64,000 nucleotides of DNA, from contig JBGQAU010000001.1 in the NCBI GenBank assembly GCA_041494445.1, forward strand, positions 24,797-88,796. Direction: 5' to 3'. Every line of letters starts with the position of its first letter. Positions within the stretch are counted from its first letter, which is position 1. A program made the translations under genes and the position numbers. Positions 9,239 to 50,535 of this stretch are shown in pieces. Below the pieces are notes generated by a model, which was not told where the DNA came from, ran no database searches, and saw nothing but the letters and a program-made list of their open reading frames with translations. This DNA is from Acidobacteriota bacterium (lineage in GTDB: Bacteria > Acidobacteriota > Polarisedimenticolia > Polarisedimenticolales > JAIQFR01).

Positions 9239-10417
9239 ATGGACGACCCCTCCCTCGTGGAGGAGCACGGGGGGCGCAAGATCCTGAGGACGCGCGCAGG
9301 CCTCGGCTCCGGGCTCGAGGCGATCCTCCCCGGGGGGCTGTGGACCAACATCCCCGTGGTGGAGGAATTCGCCGCGTCCTCGCCGTACACGCTCCGGTAC
9401 CGCCACGAGCGGTTCTGGATCGACCGGGACGGCACGGGACCGGTGGCGGAGATCCGCCTCTCCCCCCAACCGCCTTGGTACGTGCGGAAGACTCGGACCG
9501 GGAAGCCGATGACCCGGATCGGCTCGCTCCAGGGAACGTACCTCGGGATCTACCCGGCCAAGGTTTGCGAGTATTGGCTCGCCGAGCCCAAGGAGCAGTG
9601 CCGGTTCTGCTCGGTCGGCCTCAACCTCGGCGCGGACGACGCCGACACGAAGTCCGTGGACGAGGTGGTCGAGGTGGTCAAGGCCGCCCGCCGGGAGTCG
9701 GGGATCACCTACGTGGATTTCAACACGGGGCACTACGACGGGGACACCTACCTCGACATCCTCGAGCCCTACATCGTCAAAGTGAAGGAGGCGACGAACC
9801 TCCTGATCGGCATCCAGACCCCTCCCCACCACGACCTCGCGCGGTACCGCGAGCTTCGGCGGATGGGCGTGAACCGGGTCTCGTTCTGCTTCGAGCTTTT
9901 CAACCGGGAGGTCTTCCGGAGGGTCTGCCCAGGGAAGGACCGCCAGTACGGCCTGGACCGCTACCTCGCGGCCGTCGAGTACTGCGCCAACGAGGTGCCG
10001 CCGCAGGGGCGGGGCTTCGGGCCGTGGGTCACGAACGGCGAGATCATCGCCGGGCTCGAGCCTCCCGAGGACTCCGTCAAGGCGATCGATTGGATCACCA
10101 AGGTCGGGGCAATCCCGACGGTGTGCGTGTTCCGTCCGCTGGCCGGCACGGACTACCGGGACGTGCCGCCCCCGAAGACCGACGACATGATCCCGGTGTT
10201 CCGCCGGATGTACGAGGCGTGCATGGAGCGGGGGTTGCCGATCGGCGTCGCCCCGAACGTCCACGTCTCGCTCGTGATGCTCCCGGAGGAGGGGCGCTGG
10301 CTCACGGATCGCCCGAACCGTTTCTGGCTCGGCGAGCTGAAGCTCAAGGCGATGCGGAAGGTATTCGCCCACCAATTCCGTCGGGAGCTGCAGAGGGCCG
10401 AGGCACGCGCCGCCTGA
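9239..10417 (+). CDS. Radical SAM superfamily protein with a non-canonical Cys spacing
   Basis: 392 aa from ATG 9239. The Cys motif is CEYWLAEPKEQCRFC (C-x10-C-x2-C), followed by a TIM-barrel-like pattern (ITYVDFNTG, NRVSFCFE, GEIIAGL). The upstream 151 codons of the ORF are junk. Confidence 0.7.
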   Translation: MDDPSLVEEHGGRKILRTRAGLGSGLEAILPGGLWTNIPVVEEFAASSPYTLRYRHERFWIDRDGTGPVAEIRLSPQPPWYVRKTRTGKPMTRIGSLQGTYLGIYPAKVCEYWLAEPKEQCRFCSVGLNLGADDADTKSVDEVVEVVKAARRESGITYVDFNTGHYDGDTYLDILEPYIVKVKEATNLLIGIQTPPHHDLARYRELRRMGVNRVSFCFELFNREVFRRVCPGKDRQYGLDRYLAAVEYCANEVPPQGRGFGPWVTNGEIIAGLEPPEDSVKAIDWITKVGAIPTVCVFRPLAGTDYRDVPPPKTDDMIPVFRRMYEACMERGLPIGVAPNVHVSLVMLPEEGRWLTDRPNRFWLGELKLKAMRKVFAHQFRRELQRAEARAA

Positions 10418-14162: not shown

Positions 14163-16508
14163 GTGCAGAGCGGTTCCCGAGGGACCTCGCGTCTCGGCTC
14201 CGCCGCCGCCTTCGCGGCCATGGCGGCCCTCGTGGTCGTGCTCTCGGGCCTCGCGCTGCTCCGAGCTCCGATTCCGCTTCGGGAGGGGCACGCTCGCCTG
14301 CGCGGGCTTTCGTCGCCCGCCGAGGTGAAGTTCGACCGCAGGGGCACGCCGCATGTGCGCGCGGCGACCGAGCAGGACGCCTACCGTGTGCTCGGTTGGC
14401 TCCATGCCGGGGACCGTCTGTTCCAGATGGAAACGCGCCGCAGGACCGCCGCGGGGCGCCTGTCCGAGTCGATGGGAGCGGCGACGGTTCGGATGGACGA
14501 GCGCGCGAGGACGCTCGGCATCCGCGCGCAGGCCGAGCGCGAATTCCGCGCGCTTTCCGTCGGGGAGCGCCGCCTGCTCGAGGCCTATGCCTCGGGCGTG
14601 AACGCGTACGTGTCGTCGCACCCCCGGCCGTGGGAACTGGTGGCGCTCGGGATCCGCCCCGAACCCTGGACCGCCCTCGACAGCCTGCGGTTCCTCGGGC
14701 TCATGTTCACCACGCTCTCCGCTTCGGAGAGCGTGGAGCGCGCGAATCTCTCCCGGATCCTCAGGTCCGGTCTCGGCCCCCTGCTCCCCGTCCTCGACGC
14801 GCAGAGCGCGGCCCCGACCTTCGTTCCTCCCGAGGCGCCGTACCCGGTCGCCCGGGGCGCGCGGCTCCCGGCGGGCCCGGGGACGGTGGGAGGGAGCAAC
14901 GCGTGGGCGGTCTCCGGCCTCAGGACCGCGTCGGGCCGCCCGATTCTCGCCAACGATCCCCATCTCGAGGCGGAGATGCCGGGGGTTTGGTACGCCGCGC
15001 ACCTCGTCACCGCCGACGGGCTCGACGTGGCGGGGCTCACGATGGCGGGGATCCCGGGGATCGTGATCGGCCACAACGGCGTCGCGGCGTGGGGGCTCAC
15101 CATGCACCAGGCCGACGATGCGGACCTCTTCCTGGAGCGTCTCGACGAAACCGGCGAGCGGTACGAGGCCCAGGGAAGGTGGCTCCCCGTCGAGCGCAGC
15201 GTGGAGCGGATCGGGGTGAAGGGTGGAAGGGACGTCGAGATCCGCCTTGCGCGGACGCGCCACGGCCCGGTCGTGGAGATGTTTCATCCCGAGGGAAGCG
15301 GTCCGCTTGCGGTCTCCCTCGCGTGGTCGCCGGCGCTCGACGTCGGCAGCTTGCGGGCATTCCTCGCGGCGGCCAGGGCACGGACGGCCGAGGAGATCGC
15401 CGGTGCCTGGTCGCTCTACCGGGGCCCGTCCCTCAACGTGTGCTGGGCCACGGCCGATGGACGGATCGGCCTCCTGGCGGCCGGCGCGGTCCCTCGCCGA
15501 AAAAGGGGGGACGGCCGGCTGCCCGTCCCCGGCTGGACCGGGTCCTACGACTGGGACGGTCTCGTTCCGCAGGCGGATCTTCCAAGGATCGAGGATCCAC
15601 CCGAAGGATTCGTCGCGTCGGCCAACGACGACTGGACCGCCAGCGGTGTCCGCCTCCCCTACCCCGGGGACTACGCCCCGCGGGAGCGGGTGGATCGGAT
15701 CCGCGAGGTGCTCGCGTCGCTCCGGCGCGCGACCCCCTCGGACATCCGCGTCCTCCAGAACGATGTCCTGTCGCTCTACGCGGTCCGGGTCCGCGATGCC
15801 CTGCTCCGCATCGGCGCGCGGGATCCCGAGGCCCGGCGCGCGCTCGTGATCCTCGCGGGATGGGACGGCCGCGCGCTCCGCCGTGGCCCGTCGCTGCTGT
15901 TCTACACGTTCATGCAGGACCTGAGACGGCGGGCGTTCGGCCCCCGCGAGGAGCGGCTCCGCGAGCGTCTCCCGGCCGGCTGGGACCTGCTGGCGAGGAT
16001 GATCGGAGGAACCGGCGGGTCGGCGTTGTGGGACGATCCCGGGACGGACGAGGTCGAGACGCGCGAAGCGGCGGTGTCGGCGTCGCTCGCCGCCGCGCTC
16101 CGGGTGGTTGAGGCCCGGGAAGGCGCGGTCCCCGCCGCGTGGAGCTGGGGCCGCGCGCACGCGCTTTCCTACGTTCACCCGTTCGCCGAGGCGTTCCCGG
16201 CGCTCGGCCGGCTCCTGAACATCGGGCCGATCGAGATGCCGGGCGACTCGGCGACCGTCGCCGTCTCCGCGTTCTCGCTCGCCTCCCGGGACGCCGGGCC
16301 GTGGCTCATCGTGTCGGCCCGCCTGATCGTGGACCTCGGGGACCCGGACGGATCGAGGCTGGTCCTCCCGCTCGGAGAGTCGGGGCAGTTCGGCGACCCG
16401 CGGCGCGACGACCAGGCGGCAGCGTGGGCGGAAGGCCGGGACTTCCCGTTCCCCTTCCGCCGCGCCGCGGTGGACGCCGCCGCAGTCTCCACGTTGCGGC
16501 TCGAGTGA
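14163..16508 (+). CDS. Penicillin amidase / acyl-homoserine-lactone acylase family protein (S45, Ntn hydrolase)
   Basis: N-terminal membrane anchor, LHAGDRLFQME, nucleophile Ser in GGSNAWAVSG, and ANDPHL. The GTG 14163 start is uncertain; ATG 14220 is an alternative. Confidence 0.85.
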   Translation: MQSGSRGTSRLGSAAAFAAMAALVVVLSGLALLRAPIPLREGHARLRGLSSPAEVKFDRRGTPHVRAATEQDAYRVLGWLHAGDRLFQMETRRRTAAGRLSESMGAATVRMDERARTLGIRAQAEREFRALSVGERRLLEAYASGVNAYVSSHPRPWELVALGIRPEPWTALDSLRFLGLMFTTLSASESVERANLSRILRSGLGPLLPVLDAQSAAPTFVPPEAPYPVARGARLPAGPGTVGGSNAWAVSGLRTASGRPILANDPHLEAEMPGVWYAAHLVTADGLDVAGLTMAGIPGIVIGHNGVAAWGLTMHQADDADLFLERLDETGERYEAQGRWLPVERSVERIGVKGGRDVEIRLARTRHGPVVEMFHPEGSGPLAVSLAWSPALDVGSLRAFLAAARARTAEEIAGAWSLYRGPSLNVCWATADGRIGLLAAGAVPRRKRGDGRLPVPGWTGSYDWDGLVPQADLPRIEDPPEGFVASANDDWTASGVRLPYPGDYAPRERVDRIREVLASLRRATPSDIRVLQNDVLSLYAVRVRDALLRIGARDPEARRALVILAGWDGRALRRGPSLLFYTFMQDLRRRAFGPREERLRERLPAGWDLLARMIGGTGGSALWDDPGTDEVETREAAVSASLAAALRVVEAREGAVPAAWSWGRAHALSYVHPFAEAFPALGRLLNIGPIEMPGDSATVAVSAFSLASRDAGPWLIVSARLIVDLGDPDGSRLVLPLGESGQFGDPRRDDQAAAWAEGRDFPFPFRRAAVDAAAVSTLRLE

Positions 16509-19469: not shown

Positions 19470-20483
19470 ATGGGCGCGCCGACGGCTCTGACGAAGAAGG
19501 ACTTCGTTTCCGACCAGGAGGTCCGCTGGTGTCCGGGGTGCGGGGACTACGCGATCCTGAGCGCGGCCCAGCAGGTCTTCCCCGAACTGGGCGTCCCTCG
19601 CGAGAGGTTCGTGGTGGTCTCGGGGATCGGCTGCTCGAGTCGCTTCCCGTACTACATGAACACTTACGGCTTCCACGCCATCCATGGCCGCGCGCCCGCG
19701 ATCGCCACCGGCATCAAGATCGCGAACCCCGACCTTTCGGTCTGGATCGCGACCGGGGACGGCGATGCGCTGTCTATCGGCGGGAACCATGTGATCCACA
19801 CGCTCCGCCGCAACCTCGACATCAAGATCCTGATGTTCAACAACCGGATCTACGGACTGACCAAGGGGCAGCTTTCGCCGACCTCCGAGATGGGTAAGAA
19901 GACGAAGTCGACACCGTACGGCTCCGTCGATCGTCCGTTCAACCCCGTCGCCCTGGCGCTGGGCGCCGACGCGACCTTCGTCGCCCGGAGCGTGGACGTC
20001 AACGCGCCGCACCTCAAGGAGGTGATCCGCGCGGCCGCCGACCATCGGGGCGCCGCGTTCGTCGAGATCCTCCAGAACTGCAACATCTTCAACGACGGCG
20101 CCTGGAGCGAGTTCCGTGAGAAGGATCGGCGGGACGAGCACGTGGTTGAGCTCCGGCAGGGGGAGCCGCTCGTGTTCGGGAAGAGCCGCGATCGGGGGAT
20201 AAGGCTCGCAGGTTGCCACCGGCCGGAAGTCGTGACGCTGGGGAGCGGCGTCACAGAGAAGGACCTGCTCGTGCACGACGAGCAGGCCCCCCTCGGTTAT
20301 GCGTTCATGCTCGCGCACATGCAGCCGCCGGAGTTCCCGCTCCCGATCGGGGTATTCCGCCGTGCCGTGCTTCCGACGCTCGAGGCCGCGATCCACGAGC
20401 AGATCGGCGCCATCACGGCGAAGAAGGGTCCGGGCGACCTCGGGAAGCTGCTGCGCTCGGGCGACGTGTGGGAGGTCAAGTAG
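19470..20483 (+). CDS. korB: 2-oxoacid:ferredoxin oxidoreductase beta (TPP-binding) subunit
   Basis: RWCPGCGDYAIL, GIGCSSRFPYY and ATGDGDALSIGGNH. Confidence 0.9.
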   Translation: MGAPTALTKKDFVSDQEVRWCPGCGDYAILSAAQQVFPELGVPRERFVVVSGIGCSSRFPYYMNTYGFHAIHGRAPAIATGIKIANPDLSVWIATGDGDALSIGGNHVIHTLRRNLDIKILMFNNRIYGLTKGQLSPTSEMGKKTKSTPYGSVDRPFNPVALALGADATFVARSVDVNAPHLKEVIRAAADHRGAAFVEILQNCNIFNDGAWSEFREKDRRDEHVVELRQGEPLVFGKSRDRGIRLAGCHRPEVVTLGSGVTEKDLLVHDEQAPLGYAFMLAHMQPPEFPLPIGVFRRAVLPTLEAAIHEQIGAITAKKGPGDLGKLLRSGDVWEVK

Positions 20484-20515
20484 GCGGCGCCCGAGCGGGG
20501 CCTCTCAGACGCGAC

Positions 20516-21133
20516 TCACGGCGCCGCGGCTCCGGACGCGCGGACGGAACCTCTCCCGTGCACGATCTCAAAGTCGAAGCGGATGTCCAGGTAGACCGGT
20601 ACCAGCTCCATCGACGTGGCACGTCTGTAGTCGGGCTTGCCGTCCCCGTCGAGATCGTTCCCTTCCTCGGTCCGGAGGAGCACCGCCGGCTCGAACTTCC
20701 AAGCCCCCACCGCGGCCTCCGCGGAGCCCCGGAACTCGTCGGCGAACGGGCCCTCCATCTCGGGAACCAGCGGGCTGGGGCCGATGGTCTCGACATCTCC
20801 CCTGGGGCCGACAACGAAGCGCAGTCCGGCGTGGCCGCCGGCGCCGGCGGCCAGCGCGACGGCGGGGTACTCCGGCATTCGGTTATCGCTCCTCGGCTCC
20901 GGAGGACGGAGTTCGGTGTCGGCCGGCAAGGCGAGGGCAGGGTTCTTCGGATCGAACACGAACCTCGAGGTCGCCCGTCCGCGGAGGTCGGGGACGGTCG
21001 GTCGAGCCCCGGCATCCCCGCGGGAGCGCCCCCGGGCCGCGCAACCTGAGTCGAGCGACACGACGAGCAGCAAGGAAGCGAGCGGCGCGGCGGCGCGTGA
21101 GAAGCAGCGGGGATGCCAAGAGCGGGGTCGCAT
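20516..21133 (-). CDS. TonB C-terminal-domain protein, probable exported or lipoprotein
   Basis: N-terminal signal with SLDSGC. The TonB_C-like segment MPEYPAVALAAGAGGHAGLRFVVGPRGDV...AWKFEP carries a DGDGKPD insertion. Confidence 0.6.
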   Translation of the reverse strand: MRPRSWHPRCFSRAAAPLASLLLVVSLDSGCAARGRSRGDAGARPTVPDLRGRATSRFVFDPKNPALALPADTELRPPEPRSDNRMPEYPAVALAAGAGGHAGLRFVVGPRGDVETIGPSPLVPEMEGPFADEFRGSAEAAVGAWKFEPAVLLRTEEGNDLDGDGKPDYRRATSMELVPVYLDIRFDFEIVHGRGSVRASGAAAP

Positions 21134-21137
21134 GGCC

Positions 21138-22082
21138 TCAGCTCAGCGTGAACTCGATCTGGATCGTGAAGTAGATCGGCACCGCTCGGCCGTCGAAGCG
21201 GGCCGGCTCGTAGCGCCACTGCTGCACCGCCTCCACCGAAGCGGCGGCGAGATCCTCGCAGCCAGGCGGCACGCGCAGCACCTGCACCGCCCGTGGAACC
21301 CCCTCGGTGTCGATCACCGCTTGCAGCAGGATCCGGCCGCTCCTCTTTTCCTTGCGGGCCGTTTTCGGGTACACCGGGTCGACCTTGCGAATCCGATTGG
21401 GCGGCTCGACGCGGAGGTCCCCGGTAAGGACCTCGATCTTCTGCACCCGCTCCAGCCGCTCCCTCACCGCTTCCGAATCCATAGGCGTCACGGCAACGAC
21501 GATCCACTCCCCGTCGATCGGCGACGGGGCCGCGATCGCCACCGTCCGCTCGCTTCCGGCCAGTAGGCGCGCCTCGGCCAGAGGCTGCCCCTTCCCGCCG
21601 GGGCCGTCGATCGTCAGGGAGATCTCGTGGATGCGGTCGGGACCCGCGGGCGCTTCGGCCAAGAATCGCAGCTCGGCCCAGGTCTGCCCCGGGTAGATCG
21701 TCCCTTCGAATCGCGCCTCGCCGCTAGAGTCGGGGCTGACGATGAAGCCGGTCACCGCTTCGGCCCGTTCTCCACCCAACACTCGCGCGAGCGCATCAAT
21801 CTGCCCGGGCGTTCCCCAGGCCTCCTCGTCGGGCAGGACGATCGGCGTCCCGCAGAACTTCGCGCATCCGTACCCCACGCCGCGCGGCGAGGCGGTTCCC
21901 GCGACCCGCACCACGCGCAGGTGGTACGCGAAGCGCGTGGGGTCTTGGCTCCCTCCCGCCCCCGTCGGGGGCGCGCCCGTCGTCCCCTGTCGTTCCGACG
22001 CCCCGAGCCCGACCCCGGCCGCCAGCGCGATCCCGGTGACCGTCAGCCATGCGATGCCCGCGACCTTCGCCACCTTTCTCAT
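21138..22082 (-). CDS. Membrane-anchored protein with a TonB C-terminal domain
   Basis: The N-terminal TM helix is followed by an unknown central domain. The C-terminus VDPVYPKTARKEKRSGRILLQAVIDTEGVPRAVQVL...WRYEPARFDGRAVP is a clear TonB_C fold signature. Confidence 0.7.
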   Translation of the reverse strand: MRKVAKVAGIAWLTVTGIALAAGVGLGASERQGTTGAPPTGAGGSQDPTRFAYHLRVVRVAGTASPRGVGYGCAKFCGTPIVLPDEEAWGTPGQIDALARVLGGERAEAVTGFIVSPDSSGEARFEGTIYPGQTWAELRFLAEAPAGPDRIHEISLTIDGPGGKGQPLAEARLLAGSERTVAIAAPSPIDGEWIVVAVTPMDSEAVRERLERVQKIEVLTGDLRVEPPNRIRKVDPVYPKTARKEKRSGRILLQAVIDTEGVPRAVQVLRVPPGCEDLAAASVEAVQQWRYEPARFDGRAVPIYFTIQIEFTLS

Positions 22083-22417
22083 CGGATGCCCCCCTCCGAA
22101 CGCGGCTCGGGCGTCGCGCCCGGGACCGCGACGACCACGATCGATCCGGCCGCCGGCGAGTCGATCACCCTGACCCGAGCGTCGCGGCCTCCGAGACGCA
22201 ACGCGAGCACTTCGACGGGCGCGCGCGGGTGCTGCGGCACCTCCCGGGGAAGCAAGAAGCGTCCCGCGACGAGCACCGCCACGAGAGCCGCCGCCGCCGC
22301 GAGCCCCCAGACGATGGGTCGCGCCGCCTTCGGCCGCCGCCGGGGCGGAGGCAGCGAGGCGGCGACCTCCGTCACGACTTCCCTGAGCAGCCCGATTCCG
22401 TCCCGCTCTTCGTTCAT
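22079..22417 (-). CDS. Small single-pass membrane protein, positional anti-sigma factor candidate
   Basis: 112 aa from ATG 22417 (MNEERDGIGLL...), one TM helix (IVWGLAAAAALVAVLVAG). It has 4-nt overlaps with both neighbours. No HxxxCxxC zinc anti-sigma motif is present. Confidence 0.5.
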   Translation of the reverse strand: MNEERDGIGLLREVVTEVAASLPPPRRRPKAARPIVWGLAAAAALVAVLVAGRFLLPREVPQHPRAPVEVLALRLGGRDARVRVIDSPAAGSIVVVAVPGATPEPRSEGGIR

Positions 22418-23004
22418 CGACGTGCCTCCAACGGCGGCCGGACCTCGAGGGCGGCGCGGGCGAGGCGAGCGCGGGCGTCCCGCGCGATGGACCGCACGCC
22501 TCCCGCCGTGATACCGAGCAACCGGCCCGTGTCCTCGGCCGTGAGCTCGCCGATCTCGTAGAGCGCGATCACCTCGCGCTGCCCCTCGGTGAGTGCACCG
22601 AGGAGTCGAGTCAGCGTGAGCCGCGCCTCGACGGCGTCCATCGGCCGCGGCCTCGCACCCCACCGGATCAGGACGCCGAAGCGCTCGGCCAGTCTCCGGC
22701 GACGCCGCTCCGCGCGAAACGAGTTCCTTGCCCGCCGGACGAGGGACGTGGAGAGCCACGCCTCGATGGTCCCCTTCCCCGGATCGAACGATTCCAGCCG
22801 CCGGTGCGCAGCGAAGAGCGCGTCCTGAACGAGGTCCGGCACGTCGTCCGGCGGGATGCCGATCGCCAGCGCGACTCGCGAGAGGCGCGGCCGCAACGCC
22901 GCCCAGAGCCGATCCGCCGCCCCGGCGTCGCCCTGCCTCGCCCGGAGCGCGAGGGCCGTGAGATCCTCTTTTTTCGGACCCGGCAGGTCGTTGCTCGGTG
23001 CCAT
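22414..23004 (-). CDS. ECF-type RNA polymerase sigma-70 family factor
   Basis: Region 2 is DLVQDALFAAHRRLESFDPGKGTIEAWL and region 4 is LTEGQREVIALYEIGELTAEDTGRLLGITAGGVRS. The start was chosen at ATG 23004 (MAPSNDL). Confidence 0.85.
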   Translation of the reverse strand: MAPSNDLPGPKKEDLTALALRARQGDAGAADRLWAALRPRLSRVALAIGIPPDDVPDLVQDALFAAHRRLESFDPGKGTIEAWLSTSLVRRARNSFRAERRRRRLAERFGVLIRWGARPRPMDAVEARLTLTRLLGALTEGQREVIALYEIGELTAEDTGRLLGITAGGVRSIARDARARLARAALEVRPPLEARR

Positions 23005-23137
23005 TGCCGCCTCCGAGCGGGCCGCCCATCCCCGCCGCCTCGATCCTTCATACACCGGAACCGGGGGAAACGTGCGGGGTCGCCGTCGTCCTCCGGAACG
23101 GTGATATGTTTCGGCACCCCCAACGGAGGCCGGACAC

Positions 23138-25378
23138 ATGACCATCCGCCCCCTTCCCCGCCGCCTCGCGGTCCTCGCCGGGGCTCTTGCTCTCTCCGCG
23201 GTCCTCGCGACCGCCCGCGGCGCATCATCGACCGCGCCTCACCCCGCCGACCCTCTCGACGACGCGCTCGCATCGGCTGGAATCCCGCCCGGCCGGCTCG
23301 GATTCGAGCCCGAGGGGACGTGGCTCCGATACCCGGACCCGCGGCAGGTGCCGTACGTCAACCGGATGTTCTCCGACCTGTTCGCGCATCCGGACAGGAT
23401 CGACGACACGCTCCGGCTGATGGCGCAAGCGGCGCGCGACTTCCTGTCGCCCGCCTACCGCACCGCCAAGGACGACGGGCTGTTCCGCGCCGCGTACTTC
23501 ACCGGCTGGGACCTCAGGCTCTCGGGGCACCGCGAGTACACGGCGGCGCTCGACGACAAGGCTCCCGCGGGTCCCGGCGCCGAGGACCCGCTCGTTTTCG
23601 CGGTGGAGCGGCTCTACCGCGACCTGGGCCTCCCCTTCGACCTCGTCCGCCTCGACAAACCGGCCGACTTCCCGCGCCACCGGGAGGACGCGAGGACGGC
23701 GGCGGCGAAGCTCGATCCCGAGCTTCGGGCCATCGTCGCCCAGGCGGTGCTCGACCTCGCCGACGCGCTCCGATGGCACCGGATCGCCTTCGCGAAGGTC
23801 GACGGGAAGGACATGATCGCGGTCGCGAAGCTCCGGGACCTGGGCGCGACGCAGTTCGACGGGATGGAGTACCACCCGGAGTGCGACCGAGTCGCGCGCG
23901 ACCTGGACGAGCGGGCGCTGAACACCTCGTCTCGCAAGGTCGTCGCGGCGGGCGAGCGGCTCGTGAAATCGCTCCAGGCGTGGGTGGCGGCGACCAAGGC
24001 GGATCTCGCGACGCAGCACTTCGACCTCGTCACCCCCGCGGGGCGGATCGTGGTGTCCGGGTCCGGGAACGACACTCACGAGGAGCCGGACCTCCTGCTC
24101 CTCGTGGACCTCGGCGGGGACGACGTGTACCGGGGCGGAATCGGGGGCAACACGCCTACGCAATCGGTCACGCTGGCCGTGGATCTCGCGGGGAACGACC
24201 GCTACCTCGCGGAGGACGAGCGCTCGAACGCCCAGGGGAGCGGGATTCTCGGCACCGGCGTCCTGATCGACGCGGCCGGCGACGACGTTTACCGGGCATA
24301 TGGCTCGTCGCAAGGATACGGCCTCTTCGGCACCGGGCTCCTCGCCGATCTCGCCGGCAACGACCGTTACGAGCTGACCGTGGAAGGCCAGGGGGCGGCG
24401 GAGTTCGGCGTCGGGCTGCTCTTCGATCTCGCGGGGAGCGACTCGTACCGGATCGTGAGCGGGGGCCAGGGGTTCGGCGGCGTGGGGAACGGCATCGGGA
24501 CGCTGGTGGACCTCGGCGGGAACGACTCCTACTTCGCGGAGCCGGACTCGTCGAAGGCGTACCGTCCCGACGACCACTCGCAGCTCAAGGTCAACTACTC
24601 GTACGCGCAGGGTGCGGCCGCGGGAAGGCGCGGTGACCTCGAGGACGGCCACTCGTGGGCGGGCGGCGTCGGCACGCTGATCGATCTCGGCGGGAACGAC
24701 ACCTATCGCTCCGGGAACTGGTCGGCGGGCTCGGGGTACTGGTACGGGATCGGCTGGCTCTACGACGCGTCGGGCGACGATCTCTACAGCGCGTCGGTTT
24801 TCTCCCTCGCCTCCGGCGCGCACTTCTGCATCGGGGCGCTGATCGACGAGCGAGGGAACGACCGGTACGAGGGGTACGGCGACTCGCACACCGGCATGGC
24901 CTTCGGGCACGACTTCACGATAGCGCTCCTCTACGACGGCGCCGGGAACGACGTCTACCGCTACGGCGCCGACGGCTTCGGGTACGCGATCAACATGAGC
25001 CTCGCGATGCTCGTGGACGCGGGAGGCGACGACACGTACGTCCTCGACCGCGGGAAGGAAGGGTTCGGGGTCACGAACTTCACCGCGGCGGATCTCACGC
25101 CCAACGTGACCCGGAACTATCTCGCCTGGCCGGTCGAGGTCGGGCTCTTCCTCGACGCCGGCGGGAAAGACCGGTATCTGGAGCGCGATCCCGCGACCGG
25201 ACAGGAAGCCCCTTCGGCCGCGCGAAAGGACGGCGTGCGCATCCTGAGGCCCGCCTCCCCCGCTCGCGATGCGGACGGCCGGTACGCCGGGATCTTCTTC
25301 GACCGGCCCGGCGCGTCCCCGCGGCCGATCGATTGGTTCCGCTTCCGCTGGTCGCCGATGCCTGCGCCGGCCCAGTGA
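23138..25378 (+). CDS. Secreted 746-aa protein with 12 DxxGxDxY repeats (beta-solenoid-like?), function unknown
   Basis: Signal peptide MTIRPLPRRLAVLAGALALSAVLATARG, a non-repeat N-domain of about 300 aa, then the repeat region (next feature). Confidence 0.75.
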   Translation: MTIRPLPRRLAVLAGALALSAVLATARGASSTAPHPADPLDDALASAGIPPGRLGFEPEGTWLRYPDPRQVPYVNRMFSDLFAHPDRIDDTLRLMAQAARDFLSPAYRTAKDDGLFRAAYFTGWDLRLSGHREYTAALDDKAPAGPGAEDPLVFAVERLYRDLGLPFDLVRLDKPADFPRHREDARTAAAKLDPELRAIVAQAVLDLADALRWHRIAFAKVDGKDMIAVAKLRDLGATQFDGMEYHPECDRVARDLDERALNTSSRKVVAAGERLVKSLQAWVAATKADLATQHFDLVTPAGRIVVSGSGNDTHEEPDLLLLVDLGGDDVYRGGIGGNTPTQSVTLAVDLAGNDRYLAEDERSNAQGSGILGTGVLIDAAGDDVYRAYGSSQGYGLFGTGLLADLAGNDRYELTVEGQGAAEFGVGLLFDLAGSDSYRIVSGGQGFGGVGNGIGTLVDLGGNDSYFAEPDSSKAYRPDDHSQLKVNYSYAQGAAAGRRGDLEDGHSWAGGVGTLIDLGGNDTYRSGNWSAGSGYWYGIGWLYDASGDDLYSASVFSLASGAHFCIGALIDERGNDRYEGYGDSHTGMAFGHDFTIALLYDGAGNDVYRYGADGFGYAINMSLAMLVDAGGDDTYVLDRGKEGFGVTNFTAADLTPNVTRNYLAWPVEVGLFLDAGGKDRYLERDPATGQEAPSAARKDGVRILRPASPARDADGRYAGIFFDRPGASPRPIDWFRFRWSPMPAPAQ
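24050..25192 (+). repeat. In-frame tandem protein repeats with a period of about 25-30 aa and signature (L/I)xDxxGxDxY
   Basis: The copies are DLGGDDVY, DLAGNDRY, DAAGDDVY, DLAGNDRY, DLAGSDSY, DLGGNDSY, DLGGNDTY, DASGDDLY, DERGNDRY, DGAGNDVY, DAGGDDTY and DAGGKDRY, at aa 324, 349, 378, 404, 430, 458, 516, 543, 570, 600, 627 and 673. Confidence 0.85.
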
Positions 25379-25387
25379 TCCGCGAGA

Positions 25388-27046
25388 TCAGTTGCCTGCG
25401 GCCGGGCGGGCGTGGGCGAACTCGTCGCCGGGCCGCCACTCCGGACGGTGGTCCGCCTGGGCGACCGCGTAGCCGACCAGGAACCCCAGACGGGCGTCCT
25501 CCACCATGCCGTCCCAGTTCCAAGTCGGGTCGATCTGGTCGCTGGGCTGGTGGTAGTGAGCGTCACGCCAGGCGTCGCCGGTCTCTTTCCCCCACCCCGG
25601 CGGGCGGCCGATGTAGTCGAGGCCCGAGGAGAAGTAGAGCGACGGGATCCCCGCCTTGGCGAACGAGAACTGGTCGGAGCGGTAGAACGCGCCGCGGTCC
25701 GGGAACGCCTCGTCCGTGACCACCCGACCCTGAAGCCCGGCGACCGCGTCGAGGATCGGGTCCAGGTCGGACTTGCCGCGGCCGACCTCGGAGACGTCGC
25801 GGGTCTTCCCGAAGATGTTCCCGGAGTCGAAGTTGATGTCGGCCAGCAAGTGGTCGTTGGGCACGGTCGGGTGGGTGGCGAAGTAGTGGGAGCCGAGCAG
25901 GTTCGACTCCTCTCCGCTCACGAACAGGAAGAGGATCGACCGCCGTGGGGGCTCCGCAAGCGCGGCAAAGCCCCGGGCGATGGCCAGGACCATGGCGACG
26001 CCCGACGCGTTGTCACGCGCGCCGTTGTAGATGCGGTCACCCGTCGCGTCGGGCTTGCCCACACCGAGATGATCGTGATGCGCGGAGAAGACGACGACCT
26101 CGTCGCGGAGCTTCGGGTCGGTGCCCCGGAGCACTCCCATTACGTTGCTCGTCTCGGCCCGGGTGACGTCGTTGGCGATCGTCAACGAGGTACGGATCCC
26201 CAGCGGGATCGGGCGGAAATCGCGCGAGCGGGCCTTCGCGACCAGTGCGTCGAAGTCGAAGCCGGCTGCCTGCAGGACCTTGCGCGTCGCGGCTTCGGTC
26301 GTCCAGGCCTTGACCTCGATCGTGGGCTCGCCGCCGTTGGGGAGCTCGTACTGCTCGCCCGTCCAGGAGTTCCGGACCACCGGCCATCCGTACCCGGCGG
26401 AGGGTATCGTGTGGATGACGATCGCCCCCGCGGCTCCGCGACGCGCCGCCTCCTCGTACTTGTACGTCCAGCGCCCGTAGTACAGCCGCCGCTTGCCGGC
26501 GAACAGCCCATCGTCCCAGTCCGGATCGTTGTTGAGGATCACCAGAACCTTGCCCCGGACATCCACGTCCTTGAAGTCGTCCCACCGGTACTCGGGCGCG
26601 GTGATGCCGTAGCCGACGAAGACGAGCTCGGCGTCGCCGAGCACCGAGCTCGGCGCCTGCCTGCCGGTGGCGGCGATGAAATCGTCCCAGAACCTCAAGA
26701 ACACTCGGCCGCCCTTGGTGCCGAAGCTCCACTCCTCCGGCACGTGCGAGGTCAGTCCGACGACCTCGAACCTCTGCTCCCAGCCGCCGTCCGGCCCCGC
26801 CGGCTCGAGGCCGAGGGACTCCATGGTACTCGCCAGGAACGCCACCGCGAGCACGTCGCCGGGCTTCGAGGTCGCCCGACCCTCCAGAAGGTCGTTGGAC
26901 AGGAATCGCGTCGGCCCGGAGATCGCGTCAGCCGTCACGGCCTTCGAGGCCGCGAGCGCCTGGGGCGACACAGGGGCCGGCAGGGCGTGTGCGGTCGCAG
27001 CCCCCGTCACGGCAAGGCCGAGTACCAACGCTGTCAGCCTGGTCAT
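25388..27046 (-). CDS. M28 family aminopeptidase with a PA domain, secreted
   Basis: Signal peptide MTRLTALVLGLAVTGAATAHA. Zn-ligand motifs are SAHHDHLG, ARDNASG and FVSGEESNLLGS. GGAGGA precedes ATG 27046, so the ORF-track start 27061 is probably too long. Confidence 0.85.
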   Translation of the reverse strand: MTRLTALVLGLAVTGAATAHALPAPVSPQALAASKAVTADAISGPTRFLSNDLLEGRATSKPGDVLAVAFLASTMESLGLEPAGPDGGWEQRFEVVGLTSHVPEEWSFGTKGGRVFLRFWDDFIAATGRQAPSSVLGDAELVFVGYGITAPEYRWDDFKDVDVRGKVLVILNNDPDWDDGLFAGKRRLYYGRWTYKYEEAARRGAAGAIVIHTIPSAGYGWPVVRNSWTGEQYELPNGGEPTIEVKAWTTEAATRKVLQAAGFDFDALVAKARSRDFRPIPLGIRTSLTIANDVTRAETSNVMGVLRGTDPKLRDEVVVFSAHHDHLGVGKPDATGDRIYNGARDNASGVAMVLAIARGFAALAEPPRRSILFLFVSGEESNLLGSHYFATHPTVPNDHLLADINFDSGNIFGKTRDVSEVGRGKSDLDPILDAVAGLQGRVVTDEAFPDRGAFYRSDQFSFAKAGIPSLYFSSGLDYIGRPPGWGKETGDAWRDAHYHQPSDQIDPTWNWDGMVEDARLGFLVGYAVAQADHRPEWRPGDEFAHARPAAGN

Positions 27047-27128
27047 CAGGACGTCCTCCACGCTCGGAAAGATGGAACTGCGCTGTCCCCAGGTTTCCCG
27101 CCGGGCGCCTGTGCTGGACGGTCCGAGC

Positions 27129-29573: not shown

Positions 29574-31670
29574 ATGGCAGCGAACGACCCGAAGCGAGGC
29601 GAGGGCGAGACCCGCCGCCTCCATCCTGCGGCTTATCGCGAGCTCGAGCCCGGCGAGACCTACGAGCCGTTCGTGCCTTCCGGCGCCGCGGTGCCGGAGT
29701 TCACGTTCCGCTCGGTCTTCACCGGGATCGTGATGGTCCTGATCTTCTCGGTGGCCGCGACCTACTCGGGGCTCAAGGTCGCCCAGGTGTTCGAGGCGGC
29801 GATCCCGATCTCGATCCTGGCCGTGGGCCTGTCGGGTCTCTTCCGCAGGCGCAACTCGATCCTCGAGAACGTGATCATCCAGAGCATCGGGGGCGCGTCG
29901 GGGCTCATCGTGGCCGGCTCGATCTTCACGCTTCCGGCGCTCTACATCATGAACGTCGCGCCGGGAGCCGGGAGGATGCTCCTGACGGTGTTCGTGGTCG
30001 CGGTCCTGGGCTCTTCCCTCGGCCTCCTGTTCCTGATCCCTCTCCGGCGCTATTTCGTCGCCGAGCAGCACGGGAAGCTGCCGTTCCCCGAGGCGACGGC
30101 GATCAACGAGGTCTATATCACGGGGGAAGCCGGCGGCGAGCAGGCGAGAACGCTGCTCCTCGCGGCGGGTGTGGGCGGGATCTACGACTTCCTCGCCACC
30201 TCGGTCCGGGCGTGGTCCGAGATCGTGAACTTCCAGTTCCTGCCGTTCATGAAGAACCTGGCGGACAAGTACAAGGCCGCGGTCAGCGTGAACGCGGTCG
30301 CGATGATCGTCGGGCTCGGCTACATCACCGGCCTAAGGTACTCGGCGATCATCTGCGCCGGGGGCCTGTTCTCGAACCTGATCATGGTCCCGCTGATCTA
30401 CCACTTCGGCCAGTACGTCCCCTCGATCTCCATTCCGCCGGCGCCCCTGCCCGGCGTTCCCGGGTTCATCGCGGACATGAGCGCCGGGAACATCTTCCGG
30501 CTTTACGCCCAGCGGGTCGGCGTCGGGGCCATGGCGGGCGCCGGCATCATCGGGATCCTGAAGGCGCTCCCCACCATCGCCAGCGCGTTCTCGCTGGGAT
30601 TCAAGCAGATCTTCCGCCCGCACGCCCACGCCCAGGAGGTCAGGCGCACCGACCGCGATCTCAAGATGAGCACGGTGATGGGCGGGATCGTGGCCGCGAC
30701 GCTCGCCGTCGGCGTGTTCTTCCTCGTGCTCCTGCGCCAGGACCCGGTCGCCGCCGGGAAGGCGCCTCAGATCGCGCTGACCGGCCTCGTGATCGCGTTC
30801 GTGTTCTCTTTCCTGTTCACCACCGTGGCCGCCCTGGCGACGGCCATGACCGGCAACAACCCGATCTCGGGCATGACCCTGGTCACGCTGATCATCGGCT
30901 CGACGGCCCTGGTCTCGGTCGGGCTCCAGGGCGAGTACGGGAAGTTCGCAGCGATCGTGATGGGCGCCGTGGTCTGCTCCGCCCTGGCGATGAGCGGCGG
31001 GTTCGTCACCGACCTCAAGGTCGGCTACTGGCTCGGCTCGACCCCGAGGTACCAGCAGATCTCCAAGGTGATCGGCACGCTGTTCGCCGCGGTCGGCGTC
31101 GCCCTGACCGTGCTCCTGATCCACCGCGCGTTCGGCAGGACGGACGCCGCCACGGGGCAGTTCGTCTCCGGCTTCATGAACACGCAAGTGGTGCCGGCGC
31201 CGCAGGCGAACCTGTTCGCCACGATCCTCTCCGGCATCTTCGACAAGCAGCCGGTGACCTGGCTCCTCTACAGCGTGGGCCTCGTGCTCGCGGTGCTCCT
31301 CGAGATGATGAAGATCCCGCCGCTGGCGTTCGCCATCGGGATGTACCTGCCGCTGCAGGTCAACACGCCGCTGTTCATCGGCGGCGTCGTCTCGCACTGG
31401 GTCGGGAAGAGCAGCAAGGACCCGAAGGTGTCCGAGGCGCGGTCCCAGCGCGGCACGCTCCTCGCCAGCGGGTTCATCGCCGGCGGCGCGATCATGGGTG
31501 TCGTCGGCGCGCTCCTGGTCATCGGCAAGGAGTACCTCTCGTTCCTGAACGTGGACCTCGGCGTGCCCGACAAGAGCGACACGCTGGGGCAGATCGTGAG
31601 CATCGTGATGTTCACCGGGCTGTGCCTCTTCCTCTACTTCGACTCGAGGCGCGCCAAGCCGCCGGCGTAG
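29574..31670 (+). CDS. OPT family oligopeptide transporter
   Basis: 698 aa, polytopic. The N-terminal pattern is EFTFRSVFTGIVMVLIFSVAATYSGLKV, with Gly-rich helices typical of OPT throughout. Confidence 0.85.
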   Translation: MAANDPKRGEGETRRLHPAAYRELEPGETYEPFVPSGAAVPEFTFRSVFTGIVMVLIFSVAATYSGLKVAQVFEAAIPISILAVGLSGLFRRRNSILENVIIQSIGGASGLIVAGSIFTLPALYIMNVAPGAGRMLLTVFVVAVLGSSLGLLFLIPLRRYFVAEQHGKLPFPEATAINEVYITGEAGGEQARTLLLAAGVGGIYDFLATSVRAWSEIVNFQFLPFMKNLADKYKAAVSVNAVAMIVGLGYITGLRYSAIICAGGLFSNLIMVPLIYHFGQYVPSISIPPAPLPGVPGFIADMSAGNIFRLYAQRVGVGAMAGAGIIGILKALPTIASAFSLGFKQIFRPHAHAQEVRRTDRDLKMSTVMGGIVAATLAVGVFFLVLLRQDPVAAGKAPQIALTGLVIAFVFSFLFTTVAALATAMTGNNPISGMTLVTLIIGSTALVSVGLQGEYGKFAAIVMGAVVCSALAMSGGFVTDLKVGYWLGSTPRYQQISKVIGTLFAAVGVALTVLLIHRAFGRTDAATGQFVSGFMNTQVVPAPQANLFATILSGIFDKQPVTWLLYSVGLVLAVLLEMMKIPPLAFAIGMYLPLQVNTPLFIGGVVSHWVGKSSKDPKVSEARSQRGTLLASGFIAGGAIMGVVGALLVIGKEYLSFLNVDLGVPDKSDTLGQIVSIVMFTGLCLFLYFDSRRAKPPA

Positions 31671-31699
31671 CGCGAAGCGCGGCGGTGTAGACTCCGCAT

Positions 31700-33427
31700 A
31701 TGCGCGCGCAAGAGGCTTCGCACCGCTTCCGCAGCGTCATCTTCCTCCTGCTGCTCGCGGCGGCGGTCGCGGCGGGGATCGGCGCGGCCGGCCCCGCGGC
31801 CCCTTCCGCGCGCCCGGCTCCCGGCGGGGGCGCGGTGGCGTCGGCGGCCCCCGCGGCCACGGAGACGGGTCTCCTGGTCCTCCGGGAGGGCGGCAACGCC
31901 GCGGACGCGGCGGTCGCCGTCGCGCTGGCGCTCGCGGTCGTCCACCCACAGGCGGGGAACCTCGGCGGCGGCGGGTTCGCCGTCGCGAAGTTCGGCGACG
32001 AGATTGCCGCTCTCAACTTCCGCGAGACGGCCCCCGCCGCGGCGACGCCGGGAATGTTCCTCGGCCCGGACGGGGCCCCTGTTCCGGAAAAGTCGCTCGT
32101 GGGGCCGCTCGCCGCGGGCGTACCGGGGTCGCCCGCGGGCCTCTTCGAGCTTCACCGCCGGTTCGGGCGGCTTCCGTGGAAGAAGGTCGTCGCGCCGGCG
32201 GTCGGCCTCGCCCGCGATGGATTCACGGTTACGGAGCGGTTGTCCCGGGCGATCGCCGAGGACCGCATGCTCCTGGCCCGCTTCCCGGAGACCGCGGCGG
32301 TCTGGTTGCCGGGAGGCAAGCCTCCGGCGACGGCATCGAGGATGCGGCTTCCGCGGCTCGCGGAGGCGCTCGAGGATTACGGCCGACGCGGCCCCGTAGC
32401 GCTGACGCGCGGCCGCGCCGCCAAGGCGATCGAGGCGGCGTCCCGAAAGCACGGCGGCATCCTGACCGCGCCCGACCTCGCGGCCTATGCCCCGGCCTGG
32501 CGGGCTCCGGTTCGCTTCCGCTCGTTCGGCTGGGAGATCGCCTCGATGCCGCTCCCTTCCTCGGGCGGGATCATCCTCGGGGAGACCTTCGGCATGCTGG
32601 AGCGTCTCGGATTCGCGAGGCTCGGGAAGGACAGCACGGATCGCGCGCATCTTCTGGTCGAAGCCTGGCGCCGCGCGTTCGCCGATCGCTTTCTGCTCGG
32701 CGACCCATCCACGACCGGGGCCGACGCCCCGCAGCTACTCGACCCGTCCTGGCTCGACCGGCGCGCGCGGGAGATCGACCGCGCGCGTGCAACGAGATCC
32801 ATCGACGTGATGCCCTGGCCCGGCGGCGGCCCGGAGTCGGCGCAGACGACGCACCTGTCGGTGGTGGACGCGCGCGGGGACGCGGTGGCGATGACGGTCA
32901 CGCTCAACGACTCCTTCGGCTGCCGCCTGCTGGTCCCGGAGCTCGGCATCCTCCTGAACAACGAGATGGACGACTTCGCGGCGGCCCCGGGAAAGGCCAA
33001 CCTCTACGGCCTCGTGCAGGGCCCCGCGAACGCCGTCGGACCGGGCAAGCGCATGCTCTCGTCCATGAGCCCCACGCTGGCGTGGAAAGGAAGCGAGATC
33101 CTCGCGATGGGGTCGCCGGGCGGCTCCCGCATTCCGACGGCCACCGGACAGGCGCTGCTGCGGATCCTGGTGGACGGGGATTCGCTGCAGGGCGCGGTGG
33201 CCCACCCCAGGATCCACCACCAGTGGATGCCGGACGAGGTGGTGGGCGAGGCCGGAGCGCTGACCGGAGAGGTCCGTGCGGAGCTGGCGAAACGGGGTCA
33301 CACCTTCAAGGACGTCGCCGCGCTAGGCGAGGTCCACGCCGTGCGCCGCCGTGCCGACGGCCGTCTCGAGGCTGCCGCGGATCCGCGGGGACCTGGCGCC
33401 GCCGGAGTTCAGGAGCCGCGGAAGTAG
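31700..33427 (+). CDS. ggt: Gamma-glutamyltranspeptidase
   Basis: Signal peptide, GGNAADAAVA, the autoprocessing Thr in AQTTHLSVVD, and GSPGGSRI. Confidence 0.9.
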   Translation: MRAQEASHRFRSVIFLLLLAAAVAAGIGAAGPAAPSARPAPGGGAVASAAPAATETGLLVLREGGNAADAAVAVALALAVVHPQAGNLGGGGFAVAKFGDEIAALNFRETAPAAATPGMFLGPDGAPVPEKSLVGPLAAGVPGSPAGLFELHRRFGRLPWKKVVAPAVGLARDGFTVTERLSRAIAEDRMLLARFPETAAVWLPGGKPPATASRMRLPRLAEALEDYGRRGPVALTRGRAAKAIEAASRKHGGILTAPDLAAYAPAWRAPVRFRSFGWEIASMPLPSSGGIILGETFGMLERLGFARLGKDSTDRAHLLVEAWRRAFADRFLLGDPSTTGADAPQLLDPSWLDRRAREIDRARATRSIDVMPWPGGGPESAQTTHLSVVDARGDAVAMTVTLNDSFGCRLLVPELGILLNNEMDDFAAAPGKANLYGLVQGPANAVGPGKRMLSSMSPTLAWKGSEILAMGSPGGSRIPTATGQALLRILVDGDSLQGAVAHPRIHHQWMPDEVVGEAGALTGEVRAELAKRGHTFKDVAALGEVHAVRRRADGRLEAAADPRGPGAAGVQEPRK

Positions 33428-34099: not shown

Positions 34100-34651
34100 T
34101 CACTCCACCAGCAGGATCGCGTAACGGTTCATCGGCTGGGACGGATCGGTCAGCACGTCGAGCGGATACCCGACGGCGTGGGCGGTCGAGAAGAGGTCCA
34201 CCGCCAGCCCCTCGGGCGTGGGGCGGGCCGAGCCCGGCAGGCGGCAATCGCCCGGCCGCCCGACGCACTCCTCGCAGTGAGGGCAGCTGCCCATGAGGAG
34301 CATGAACGCCTTGCGATGACCGGAGAGGAACACCGCCCGCTCGAGCGCGAGGAGCTCCGCGTTGAGAGGCCGCGACCACCGCTTGCGTTCTTCCTCGTCC
34401 GGGGCGGCCTTCACGAAGCGGAAGATCGCCGCTTCCGCGTACTCGCGAATGAAGCGCTCGCACTCGGCGACGGACGGGTTATTGGGAGGGCACGCCACGT
34501 TGGTGCCGTACTCGGGGCATCCGTACTGGCACTTCATGCGGACCCAGTGGGCCACCACGATGTCGGCCGCGCGAAGCCAGCGGAAGTCCTCGAAGCCGTG
34601 TTCTCGAAAGAGCCTTTCTAGAGGCTCCCGATTCGTCGTGGCGACTTGCAT
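34100..34651 (-). CDS. DUF2284 family Cys-rich metal-binding protein
   Basis: MKCQYGCPEYGTNVACPP and GSCPHCEEC motifs. The start is ATG 34651 (MQVATTN). Confidence 0.7.
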   Translation of the reverse strand: MQVATTNREPLERLFREHGFEDFRWLRAADIVVAHWVRMKCQYGCPEYGTNVACPPNNPSVAECERFIREYAEAAIFRFVKAAPDEEERKRWSRPLNAELLALERAVFLSGHRKAFMLLMGSCPHCEECVGRPGDCRLPGSARPTPEGLAVDLFSTAHAVGYPLDVLTDPSQPMNRYAILLVE

Positions 34652-50357: not shown

Positions 50358-50439
50358 GAGGTCTCCTTCGCCCTGCGCTTCGGCGCGCACCGTCCCGACC
50401 CCGGCCGGGGCGCCGACGGAACCGGGATTCTACTTCAAA

Positions 50440-50535
50440 ACGGGGTCAGAGCTTGATTCTTGCCTCGCCGAGACGAGGCAGCGGGCCCGCTCGCCGATTC
50501 GAGCCAAAGGGGCAAGAATCAAGCTCTGACCCCGT
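50440..50535. repeat. Perfect 25-bp inverted repeat with a 46-nt spacer in the dipeptidase-OPT intercistronic region
   Basis: 50440-50464 (acggggtcagagcttgattcttgcc) is the exact reverse complement of 50511-50535. The spacer has its own 6-bp hairpin (50462-50479) and the palindrome gcgggcccgc (50481-50490). Confidence 0.9.

Follow-up and report, generated by a model that had tools for sequence, protein, structure and literature searches.

The subject here is a small operon in a 64-kb stretch of acidobacterial DNA (contig JBGQAU010000001.1; the whole stretch of 64,000 nucleotides that was analysed is called the window, and its numbering is used throughout), which has a G+C content of ~70% and is in essence the same sequence as contig JBGOYL010000012.1 from assembly GCA_041479655.1 (locus L057 below). 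Four minus-strand genes lie between positions 20516 and 23004, and in reading order they encode a sigma factor of the extracytoplasmic function (ECF) type, a small membrane protein of 112 amino acids (aa), a 314-aa protein that ends in a TonB C-terminal domain (CTD) and a 205-aa protein with a more divergent domain of that kind. The reading developed below, for which we consider the balance of the evidence favourable if not overwhelming, is that the locus is a conserved and self-contained ECF module specific to Acidobacteriota, comprising three proteins with one lineage-specific extra gene.

The four genes are tightly joined. The sigma gene ends ...CGATGA with the ATG of the small gene embedded there, giving an ATGA overlap at 22414-22417; the small gene ends GGCATCCGATGA with the ATG of the 314-aa gene embedded in it (ATGA overlap, 22079-22082), and the 314-aa gene ends CTGAGCTGA, then come ggcc and the ATG of the 205-aa open reading frame (ORF), leaving a 4-nt gap at 21134-21137. 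Ribosome-binding sites of the GGAGG type are embedded in the preceding coding sequences. The sequence itself confirms what the initial annotation of this DNA had said of these junctions, and a Pfam scan of ~45 ORFs likewise confirmed its statement that the 64-kb window holds neither a TonB-dependent receptor nor ExbB/ExbD (TonB_dep_Rec, Plug, MotA_ExbB and ExbD were all without a match). An Rfam scan of 20000-26000 yielded zero RNA families; a promoter and terminator scan of 20400-23300 found no sigma-70-type promoter, and the two terminator-like matches that it gave there were not above chance.

The first gene (22414..23004, minus strand, 196 aa) encodes an ECF (group IV) sigma-70 factor. Pfam Sigma70_r2 matches with E 1e-13 and Sigma70_r4 with E 2.5e-9 (r4 / r4_2 about 1e-9), and the general model sigma70-ECF, TIGR02937, gives 60 bits where its cutoff is 42.9, which bears out the earlier identification. 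Every named NCBIfam sigma family stays under its cutoff, the best being TIGR02983 with 61.8 against 141.6, and the nearest solved structure is that of CnrH (4cxf_A, E 6e-15). GGAGG stands 5 nt ahead of the ATG at 23004, and the public gene call matches the sigma gene as read here.

The second gene (22079..22417, minus strand) encodes the 112-aa single-pass membrane protein which, judged by its position, family alignment and topology, is a probable short anti-sigma factor of a class II-like kind. From N to C it comprises a conserved amphipathic stretch with a predicted cytoplasmic helix (residues 6-22; 22352-22402, minus strand), a basic Pro/Arg cluster, one Ala-rich transmembrane (TM) segment (about residues 35-56; 22250-22315, minus) and a periplasmic tail of ~55 aa, part of which is beta-hairpin-like (about residues 67-99; 22121-22219, minus). 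The topology is N-in, the basic cluster preceding the TM segment, and the blocks of the family alignment are GIxLLRxAVxxVAxxL, the TM segment and VEVLxLRVxGRxVxARV..AGSIVV. In a class I anti-sigma factor the cytoplasmic domain has four helices and a length of 50 aa or more, and HxxxCxxC is frequent in it (the length criterion is from PMC7406223). Here the cytoplasmic part amounts to ~36 residues, namely one amphipathic helix and the basic Pro/Arg stretch, and the protein, with zero Cys and one His, has no such zinc motif, just as the initial annotation held; Pfam zf-HC2 and RsiW were also without a match. What the protein does have is the architecture of class II, an N-terminal cytoplasmic helical segment of <50 aa and then one TM segment, and in a fused homologue (see below) AlphaFold2 (AF2) predicts a helix at the matching place with low confidence. 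Pfam has no domain for this family, which is also unannotated; weak matches to NF052375 ('anti-sigma factor') were given by eight of 10 members, the best with E 4e-6 and under the cutoff. An ExbD-like role was considered for the small protein and ruled out, there being no ExbD match and no Asp in the TM segment.

Two further features of this small protein can be mentioned. Its only invariant C-terminal residues in the family are Gly-Gly (window 22079-22095, minus strand), and as the ribosome-binding site (GGAGG/GGGGG) of the downstream gene that overlaps falls at the same place, their conservation is probably at the nucleotide level, set by translational coupling and not by protein function. 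In the Ala-rich TM segment A40, A42 and A43 are near-invariant, and were that segment to be cut by an intramembrane protease, the resulting Ala-rich C-terminus would resemble known degrons, which is speculative.

The third gene (21138..22082, minus strand) encodes the 314-aa envelope protein. It starts with an N-terminal signal or anchor (residues 4-26; 22005-22073, minus) and a disordered linker, followed by a family-specific beta-rich domain (residues 51-201; 21480-21932, minus), a helix (residues 203-220) and a canonical TonB CTD (residues 229-312; 21147-21398, minus). The claim that a clear TonB_C protein is encoded here stands: Pfam TonB_C (PF03544) matches residues 236-313 with E 3.9e-15, the TonB CTD motifs YP and WRYEPA are present, and in the AF2 model (predicted local distance difference test score, pLDDT, 85.6; predicted template modelling score, pTM, 0.79) Foldseek matches the C-terminal domain to TonB CTDs with target template modelling (TM) scores of 0.66-0.83 (0.80 for 6i97_D). 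No other Pfam family matched the protein, and its middle domain gave no significant Foldseek match and no Pfam or PDB sequence match. This beta-rich domain is the most conserved part of the protein, its near-invariant residues being Y53, H54, R56, E87, W89, Q94, H152, E170 and W193. The family is a tiny one, as a profile of the middle domain, run against 1.84 billion representatives, found no more than 36 clusters at 50% identity, and full-length homologues form ~46 clusters at 90% identity.

Is the 314-aa protein then an energy-transducing TonB? TonB couples to ExbBD through a conserved TM motif that contains a His. In columns 1-50 of the alignment of this family Met1 alone is conserved; the N-terminal hydrophobic segment of the 314-aa protein is without His, and the family has no conserved His in this N-terminal part. 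In place of a Pro-rich spacer residues 51-220 form a folded beta-domain and helix with pLDDT around 90. Because its N-terminus is unconserved and without a conserved His, and there is no Pro-rich rod, the protein is not a canonical energy-transducing TonB. From the features of its sequence and family, a periplasmic sensor or co-anti-sigma factor is its probable role.

The first three genes form a unit that recurs. In loci gathered from genome and metagenome collections together with contig look-ups (designated here by L numbers), the triad of sigma factor, small TM protein (105-170 aa) and TonB_C protein has the same order in about 25 distinct loci. That order is held in every related locus with sufficient upstream DNA, the junctions being mostly 4-nt overlaps, and all of the named relatives are Acidobacteriota metagenome-assembled genomes. 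The synteny comparison that the initial annotation had proposed thus shows the sigma, small-protein and TonB_C genes to be conserved together, and the genes that flank them differ in nearly every lineage. The 205-aa gene, on the other hand, is found with the triad only in the lineage of the window and L013/L029, so the conserved unit is one of three genes and not four. In L003/L010 (CP070706.1) the sigma gene seems to be lacking, but at that place there is a run of N, and this is a data gap and not biology; runs of N occur in this 'complete' acidobacterial chromosome at about 9700-9780 and 13560-13598 of L003. The initial annotation had itself raised the possibility that in relatives a receptor and ExbBD lie just outside the operon. 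In six annotated relatives no ExbB/ExbD was found within +/-10 kb of the triad, in keeping with its reading. A TonB-dependent receptor does occur within 10 kb in two of the six (L004 and L003), at a distance of 4-8 kb with unrelated genes between and in L004 on the opposite strand; no receptor adjoins the triad in L001, L023, L024 or L025.

Of greatest consequence for the interpretation are rare homologues in which the second and third proteins are one. Three of the representatives found with the middle-domain profile are about 400 aa long rather than about 300, namely P0185 (401), P0189 (407) and P0172 (420). The build of P0185 and P0189 is an N-terminal helix, one TM segment, a hairpin-like segment, the middle domain and TonB_C, and each overlaps by 4 nt with a gene fragment ahead of it that encodes sigma region 4. 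When the small-protein profile was compared by hhalign with residues 8-97 of P0185, the probability was 81% and E 1.2e-5. In P0172 a complete small-protein sequence stands ahead of the TonB_C protein in one ORF. (P0172 also keeps the hydrophobic N-terminus of the TonB_C protein itself and so has two hydrophobic segments; its origin is either a fusion in frame, and a recent one, or an error of sequencing or gene calling. A combined MAFFT alignment, in which small proteins were misplaced onto the TonB_C region and hairpin and TonB_C look superficially alike, was discarded.) Fusion of the small and TonB_C proteins right after a sigma gene leads to the reading of the corresponding separate proteins in the window as a split anti-sigma factor and sensor. 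No other argument speaks so strongly for the TonB_C protein being more than a target transcribed along with the rest, and with the conservation of the triad it argues that this protein belongs to the signalling apparatus.

Relevant to how the module may be expressed is an element 5' of the sigma gene. It was found by aligning the upstream DNA of relatives whose sigma factors have only 45-63% identity, and in the window it is CCGCACG-N13-CGGTGTA at 23051..23077 (minus strand), with CCGCAC as the proposed -35 and GGTGTA as the proposed -10. In 17 distinct versions, which were selected with a regular expression, the blocks CCGCACG and CGGTGTA are invariant and the 13-nt spacer between them is of fixed length but variable letters; close variants are present in L024 (CGGAGTA), L025 and L045. 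Across relatives the element stands ~35-60 nt upstream of the sigma start codon, and in the 64-kb window it is the single match, the number expected by chance being 0.03 for a relaxed pattern. Since its geometry (a -35-like hexamer, about 16 nt, GTGTA) and its position fit, it is probably an auto-regulated ECF promoter of the sigma operon. The -10 block GGTGTA is similar to ECF -10 elements of the CGTA type; that of CnrH, defined experimentally, is CCGTATA (PMC13492112). Relaxed motif matches elsewhere were rejected, being inside coding or N-masked sequence and at or below chance expectation: they were at 13703 in L003/L010, 9198 in L012, 1981 and 8234 in L039, inside the TonB_C gene in L037/L038, and, with 2 mismatches, at 34197 in the window.

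How might such a module work? That the small and 314-aa proteins constitute a split anti-sigma factor and sensor is a proposal whose general architecture we think rather more probable than not, and in any specific signal we have much less confidence. With its short cytoplasmic helix the 112-aa protein would sequester the sigma factor in a class II manner, like CnrY (PMC6851896, PMC7406223), and the 314-aa protein would grasp its periplasmic tail, much as CnrX does with CnrY. The 314-aa protein would give the input, its conserved beta-domain being the likely site for a ligand or partner, and its TonB CTD might dock by beta-strand pairing on an outer-envelope partner, perhaps a Ton-box-like strand in an outer-membrane protein, perhaps the cell wall. 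A change at the TonB_C end might then either alter the hold on the small protein or expose that protein to proteolysis, with the sigma factor being freed, and the freed sigma factor would transcribe its own operon from CCGCACG-N13-CGGTGTA together with unlinked targets that are not visible here.

The CnrH/CnrY/CnrX system for nickel and cobalt in Cupriavidus metallidurans (group ECF20 by the older classification and ECF291 by the newer one) is the closest analogue. There the partners of CnrH are CnrY, a 95-aa anti-sigma factor of class II, and a separate membrane-anchored sensor, CnrX, which binds the periplasmic tail of CnrY (PMC6851896). The likeness is in the three-protein design of ECF sigma factor, tiny single-pass anti-sigma factor and separate sensor, roles that for the present proteins are putative; in CnrH being the nearest solved relative of the sigma factor; and in auto-regulation of the operon, here presumed, with -10 elements of CCGTATA in Cnr and CGGTGTA in the module. 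Against this, the gene order is cnrYXH there and sigma, small protein, sensor here, the -35 element is different, and no metal-efflux genes are linked. The putative sensor is a novel beta-domain with TonB_C and not the four-helix metal sensor that CnrX is, and the small protein has no detectable similarity to CnrY, with one predicted helix in place of the two of CnrY.

Several points weigh against the split anti-sigma and sensor reading, among them these last differences in the small protein, which in addition has no sequence similarity to any solved protein. Sigma binding by it is something that we infer, and its family's matches to NF052375 are not only far under the cutoff but mostly over the TM segment and what follows. 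In several members of the family the N-terminus of the TonB_C protein resembles a cleavable signal peptide and not an anchor. As for the fusions, P0189 has only weak similarity to the small-protein family, and on their short metagenomic contigs they could be artefacts of assembly or gene calling. An AF2 model of the fused P0189, run for docking of the hairpin on the middle domain, has pLDDT 40-68 in its N-terminal 150 residues, and the proposed contact between hairpin and sensor is structurally unsupported by it. Then there is the promoter, whose function we infer from conservation alone, and a motif scan of ~0.6 Mb of loci revealed no regulon member besides the operon itself.

With other well-known systems the resemblances are partial. 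Like FecI/FecR/FecA the module has an ECF sigma factor that would be controlled from the envelope via a single-pass inner-membrane regulator, with the TonB machinery and the Ton-box in the signalling logic. However, FecR, DUF4880 and DUF4974 domains are absent from it, as is an adjacent transducer with a signalling domain, and its TonB CTD is on the regulator side, whereas in Fec a separate TonB-ExbBD energises the receptor. The initial annotation was right to set the operon apart from both FecI/FecR/receptor and TonB-ExbBD systems, FecR domains, receptor and ExbBD not having been found. RpoE/RseA/RseB has in common with it the order of sigma factor, single-pass (here putative) anti-sigma factor and periplasmic partner, as well as translational coupling and, here presumably, sigma auto-regulation; RseA has a full class I domain and RseB is a lipid-binding protein of the MucB_RseB fold, and Pfam detected neither family here. 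The defining features of FecIR-FecA, of TonB-ExbBD, of class I anti-sigma factors and of RseAB are in all four cases not those of the module. A different precedent comes from M56 BlaR-like sensors, where TonB_C is the second commonest C-terminal domain (PMC13492132) and so again forms the periplasmic end of a signalling protein, in an arrangement that is common and functionally uncharacterised (PMC13492132, PMC10350073). There, though, the output is the BlaI repressor, cleaved by the M56 protease, and not an ECF sigma factor, and PF05569 (Peptidase_M56) was not found in the operon proteins or the fused homologues. The view of the initial annotation that TonB_C in an ECF circuit is an undescribed arrangement agrees with the searchable literature, in which no description of it was found. 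The search gave no link of TonB_C/PF03544 to an ECF anti-sigma factor, with the limit that an ECF Hub group description may already list the context; the main text of Casas-Pastor 2021 names TonB only for receptors. What the module has is ordinary ECF logic with an unusual, uncharacterised sensor, and it is confined to a narrow acidobacterial family.

Could the 314-aa protein, and perhaps the 205-aa one, be the output of the circuit and not part of its control, an ECF-regulated TonB paralogue working with unlinked ExbB/ExbD to power certain outer-membrane transporters and leaving only the 112-aa protein to regulate the sigma factor? We regard this as unlikely. Its appeal is that ECF operons commonly co-transcribe their target genes, that TonB paralogues are often numerous in bacteria, additional domains of unknown function being present in some of them (PMC10350073), and that the CTD is canonical in motifs and predicted fold (target TM score 0.8 to solved TonB CTDs) and the N-terminus hydrophobic; the receptors within 10 kb in L004 and L003 also suit it. 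However, the lack of a His-containing TM motif in an unconserved N-terminus and a globular domain in place of the proline-rich rod are hard to reconcile with energy transduction, and no ExbB/ExbD is linked in the window or within +/-10 kb in the annotated loci, though unlinked copies elsewhere are possible. Moreover, the 314-aa family is always encoded after a pair of sigma and anti-sigma-like genes, and the fused homologues, which put the same domains on an anti-sigma-like N-terminus following a sigma gene, have the architecture of a sensor rather than of a target under separate control. Another proposal that we judge improbable, at least as regards the signal, is a stress module of the RseA/RseB type, which has the same core architecture as the split anti-sigma and sensor reading and differs from it in the signal alone. 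The 314-aa protein would cap the tail of the small protein against a site-1 protease until its TonB_C domain, its middle domain or both were titrated away, whether by outer-membrane proteins not yet assembled or by other intermediates of the envelope, whereupon stepwise proteolysis of the small protein would release the sigma factor. The gene order is as in rpoE-rseA-rseB, and the absence of linked genes for a specific transporter or efflux is what a general stress sensor would lead one to expect; strand augmentation by TonB_C might suit recognition of unfolded beta-barrels, and the near-invariant alanines of the TM segment could leave the degron-like C-terminus already mentioned. Yet neither the operon nor its conserved surroundings include a gene for MucB_RseB, RseA or a protease, the cytoplasmic part of the small protein is far shorter than the class I domain of RseA, and the proteolysis is hypothetical.

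The remaining alternative, that of the initial annotation, concerns the gene on the other side of the operon, and we give it very little credence. A 746-aa repeat protein with an RR-containing signal peptide and ~12 repeats of the G-x-D-x-Y type is encoded divergently at 23138-25378 (plus strand), and it was proposed to belong to the ECF regulon through GGAAC promoters (GGAAC-N17-GTC for the first) in the 133-bp region between the two transcription units, with both TonB_C proteins as signalling or anchoring modules. The motifs are indeed there, GGAAC at 23057-61 and 23095-99 with GTC 17 nt after the first copy, and with 210 copies of GGAAC in the window, for which ~0.2 would be expected per strand in 133 bp, the presence of two is only mildly unusual. 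Neither copy fares well as an ECF -35. The first, on the plus strand, is the complement of GGTTC in the variable 13-nt spacer of the minus-strand element, and none of the 16 remaining versions of that spacer has it; the second reads GGTTCC in L001. Among the TonB_C-protein loci recovered, the divergent arrangement is kept, outside the window's lineage, in L001/L002 only. In L020 and L021, whose repeat proteins are 77% and 80% identical to that of the window, the repeat gene is directly 3' of a 2-oxoacid:ferredoxin oxidoreductase beta gene, and there is no sigma operon; in the window the operon is exactly between those two genes, and in L001 it stands where the oxidoreductase genes would otherwise be. 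A block upstream of the repeat gene is common to the window and L001, TGATATGTT (window 23102-23110, plus strand) and TGGTATGGT (L001), and as CGGTG(A/G)TATG it is loosely like the CGGTGTA of the sigma promoter. It is better read, from its form TG(A/G)TATG(T/G)T, as an extended -10 (TGnTATGNT), a candidate for that of a housekeeping promoter for the repeat gene; L020 and L021 have no obvious counterpart of it, and the full sigma-promoter motif, as stated, is found only the once in the window. Further, the repeat proteins form a family of >1,600 homologues (37-89% identity) in Acidobacteriota, Eisenbacteria, Zixibacteria, Planctomycetota, Bacteroidota and other phyla, quite a contrast to the tiny triad family confined to Acidobacteriota. 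Synteny thus largely refutes the regulon proposal. Because close relatives carry the repeat gene after the oxidoreductase genes without the sigma operon, a regulon link is unsupported and the repeat gene, on this sequence evidence, is a chance neighbour. For the circuit a false lead is removed. The presence or absence of the operon among close relatives, together with its deviating codon-position G+C (0.79-0.83 at third positions against about 0.90 in neighbours, and higher at second positions in the operon), suggests that the module was recently inserted or lost at this spot.

Returning to the split anti-sigma factor and sensor, ECF sigma factors count among the main routes by which bacteria signal, and the inputs of most of their groups are uncharacterised. 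The module is a compact and recognisable ECF system in the poorly studied Acidobacteriota, and it offers a testable case of a TonB CTD serving in signalling rather than in energy transduction, something at which the M56-TonB_C proteins also hint. Its split and fused forms are a natural pair for dissecting the minimal coupling of an anti-sigma factor to a periplasmic sensor, and the set of sigma factor, promoter and anti-sigma factor could serve as an orthogonal expression switch. More adventurous, and in our view a long shot, is the thought of a new route of cell-surface signalling, in which an anti-sigma complex with its own TonB CTD might directly read the state of TonB-dependent transporters in the outer membrane by pairing with Ton-boxes that ligand binding exposes. 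If so, an ECF sigma factor would respond to transporter occupancy or to the state of the envelope with no need of FecR, a receptor signalling domain or ExbBD, and the family-specific middle domain would be the transducing element.

The fourth gene (20516..21133, minus strand) encodes a 205-aa putative lipoprotein with a divergent TonB_C-like domain. Pfam TonB_C matches it over positions 3-61 of the profile with E 6e-6, the score being 27 bits and the cutoff 24.6, and the rest of the domain sits after an insertion of ~21 aa, as seen in a BLASTP comparison with the C-terminus of the 314-aa protein (E 0.003). The public gene calls of the same DNA are shorter, 120 or 147 aa (L057 11205-11567 and L058 11124-11567). 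The 205-aa reading is supported by conservation with L013, where tblastn gives 44% over 190 aa from residue 13 onward, and by the signal-peptide Cys, as a Cys after a hydrophobic leader is common to the 205-aa protein (SLDSGC) and its L013 homologue (AFAGC). The protein is thus probably a lipoprotein, of which the public annotation probably cuts off the signal peptide. With homologues after the triad in the window's lineage and L013/L029 only, its gene is a lineage-specific accessory outside the conserved core. The notion of both TonB_C proteins as signalling or anchoring modules can accordingly be kept for the 314-aa protein, the conserved member, but is unsupported for the 205-aa one.

Beyond the operon, the repeat protein has a GGAGG 8 nt ahead of the ATG of its gene at 23138 and no Pfam, NCBIfam or PDB sequence match; it represents a large, widespread and unannotated secreted family that is worth its own study. 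The window is also rich in genes for the scavenging of peptides and amino acids (1337-2536, 7330-8988, 14202-16508, 25388-27061, 29574-33427, 43971-45800 and 48294-51626). The set includes peptidases M24, M28 and M19, an M2 peptidase like angiotensin-converting enzyme (E 3e-222), gamma-glutamyltranspeptidase, penicillin amidase, two OPT oligopeptide transporters and an SBP_bac_5 binding protein, and glutamate dehydrogenase and an aromatic amino-acid lyase are likewise encoded in the window.

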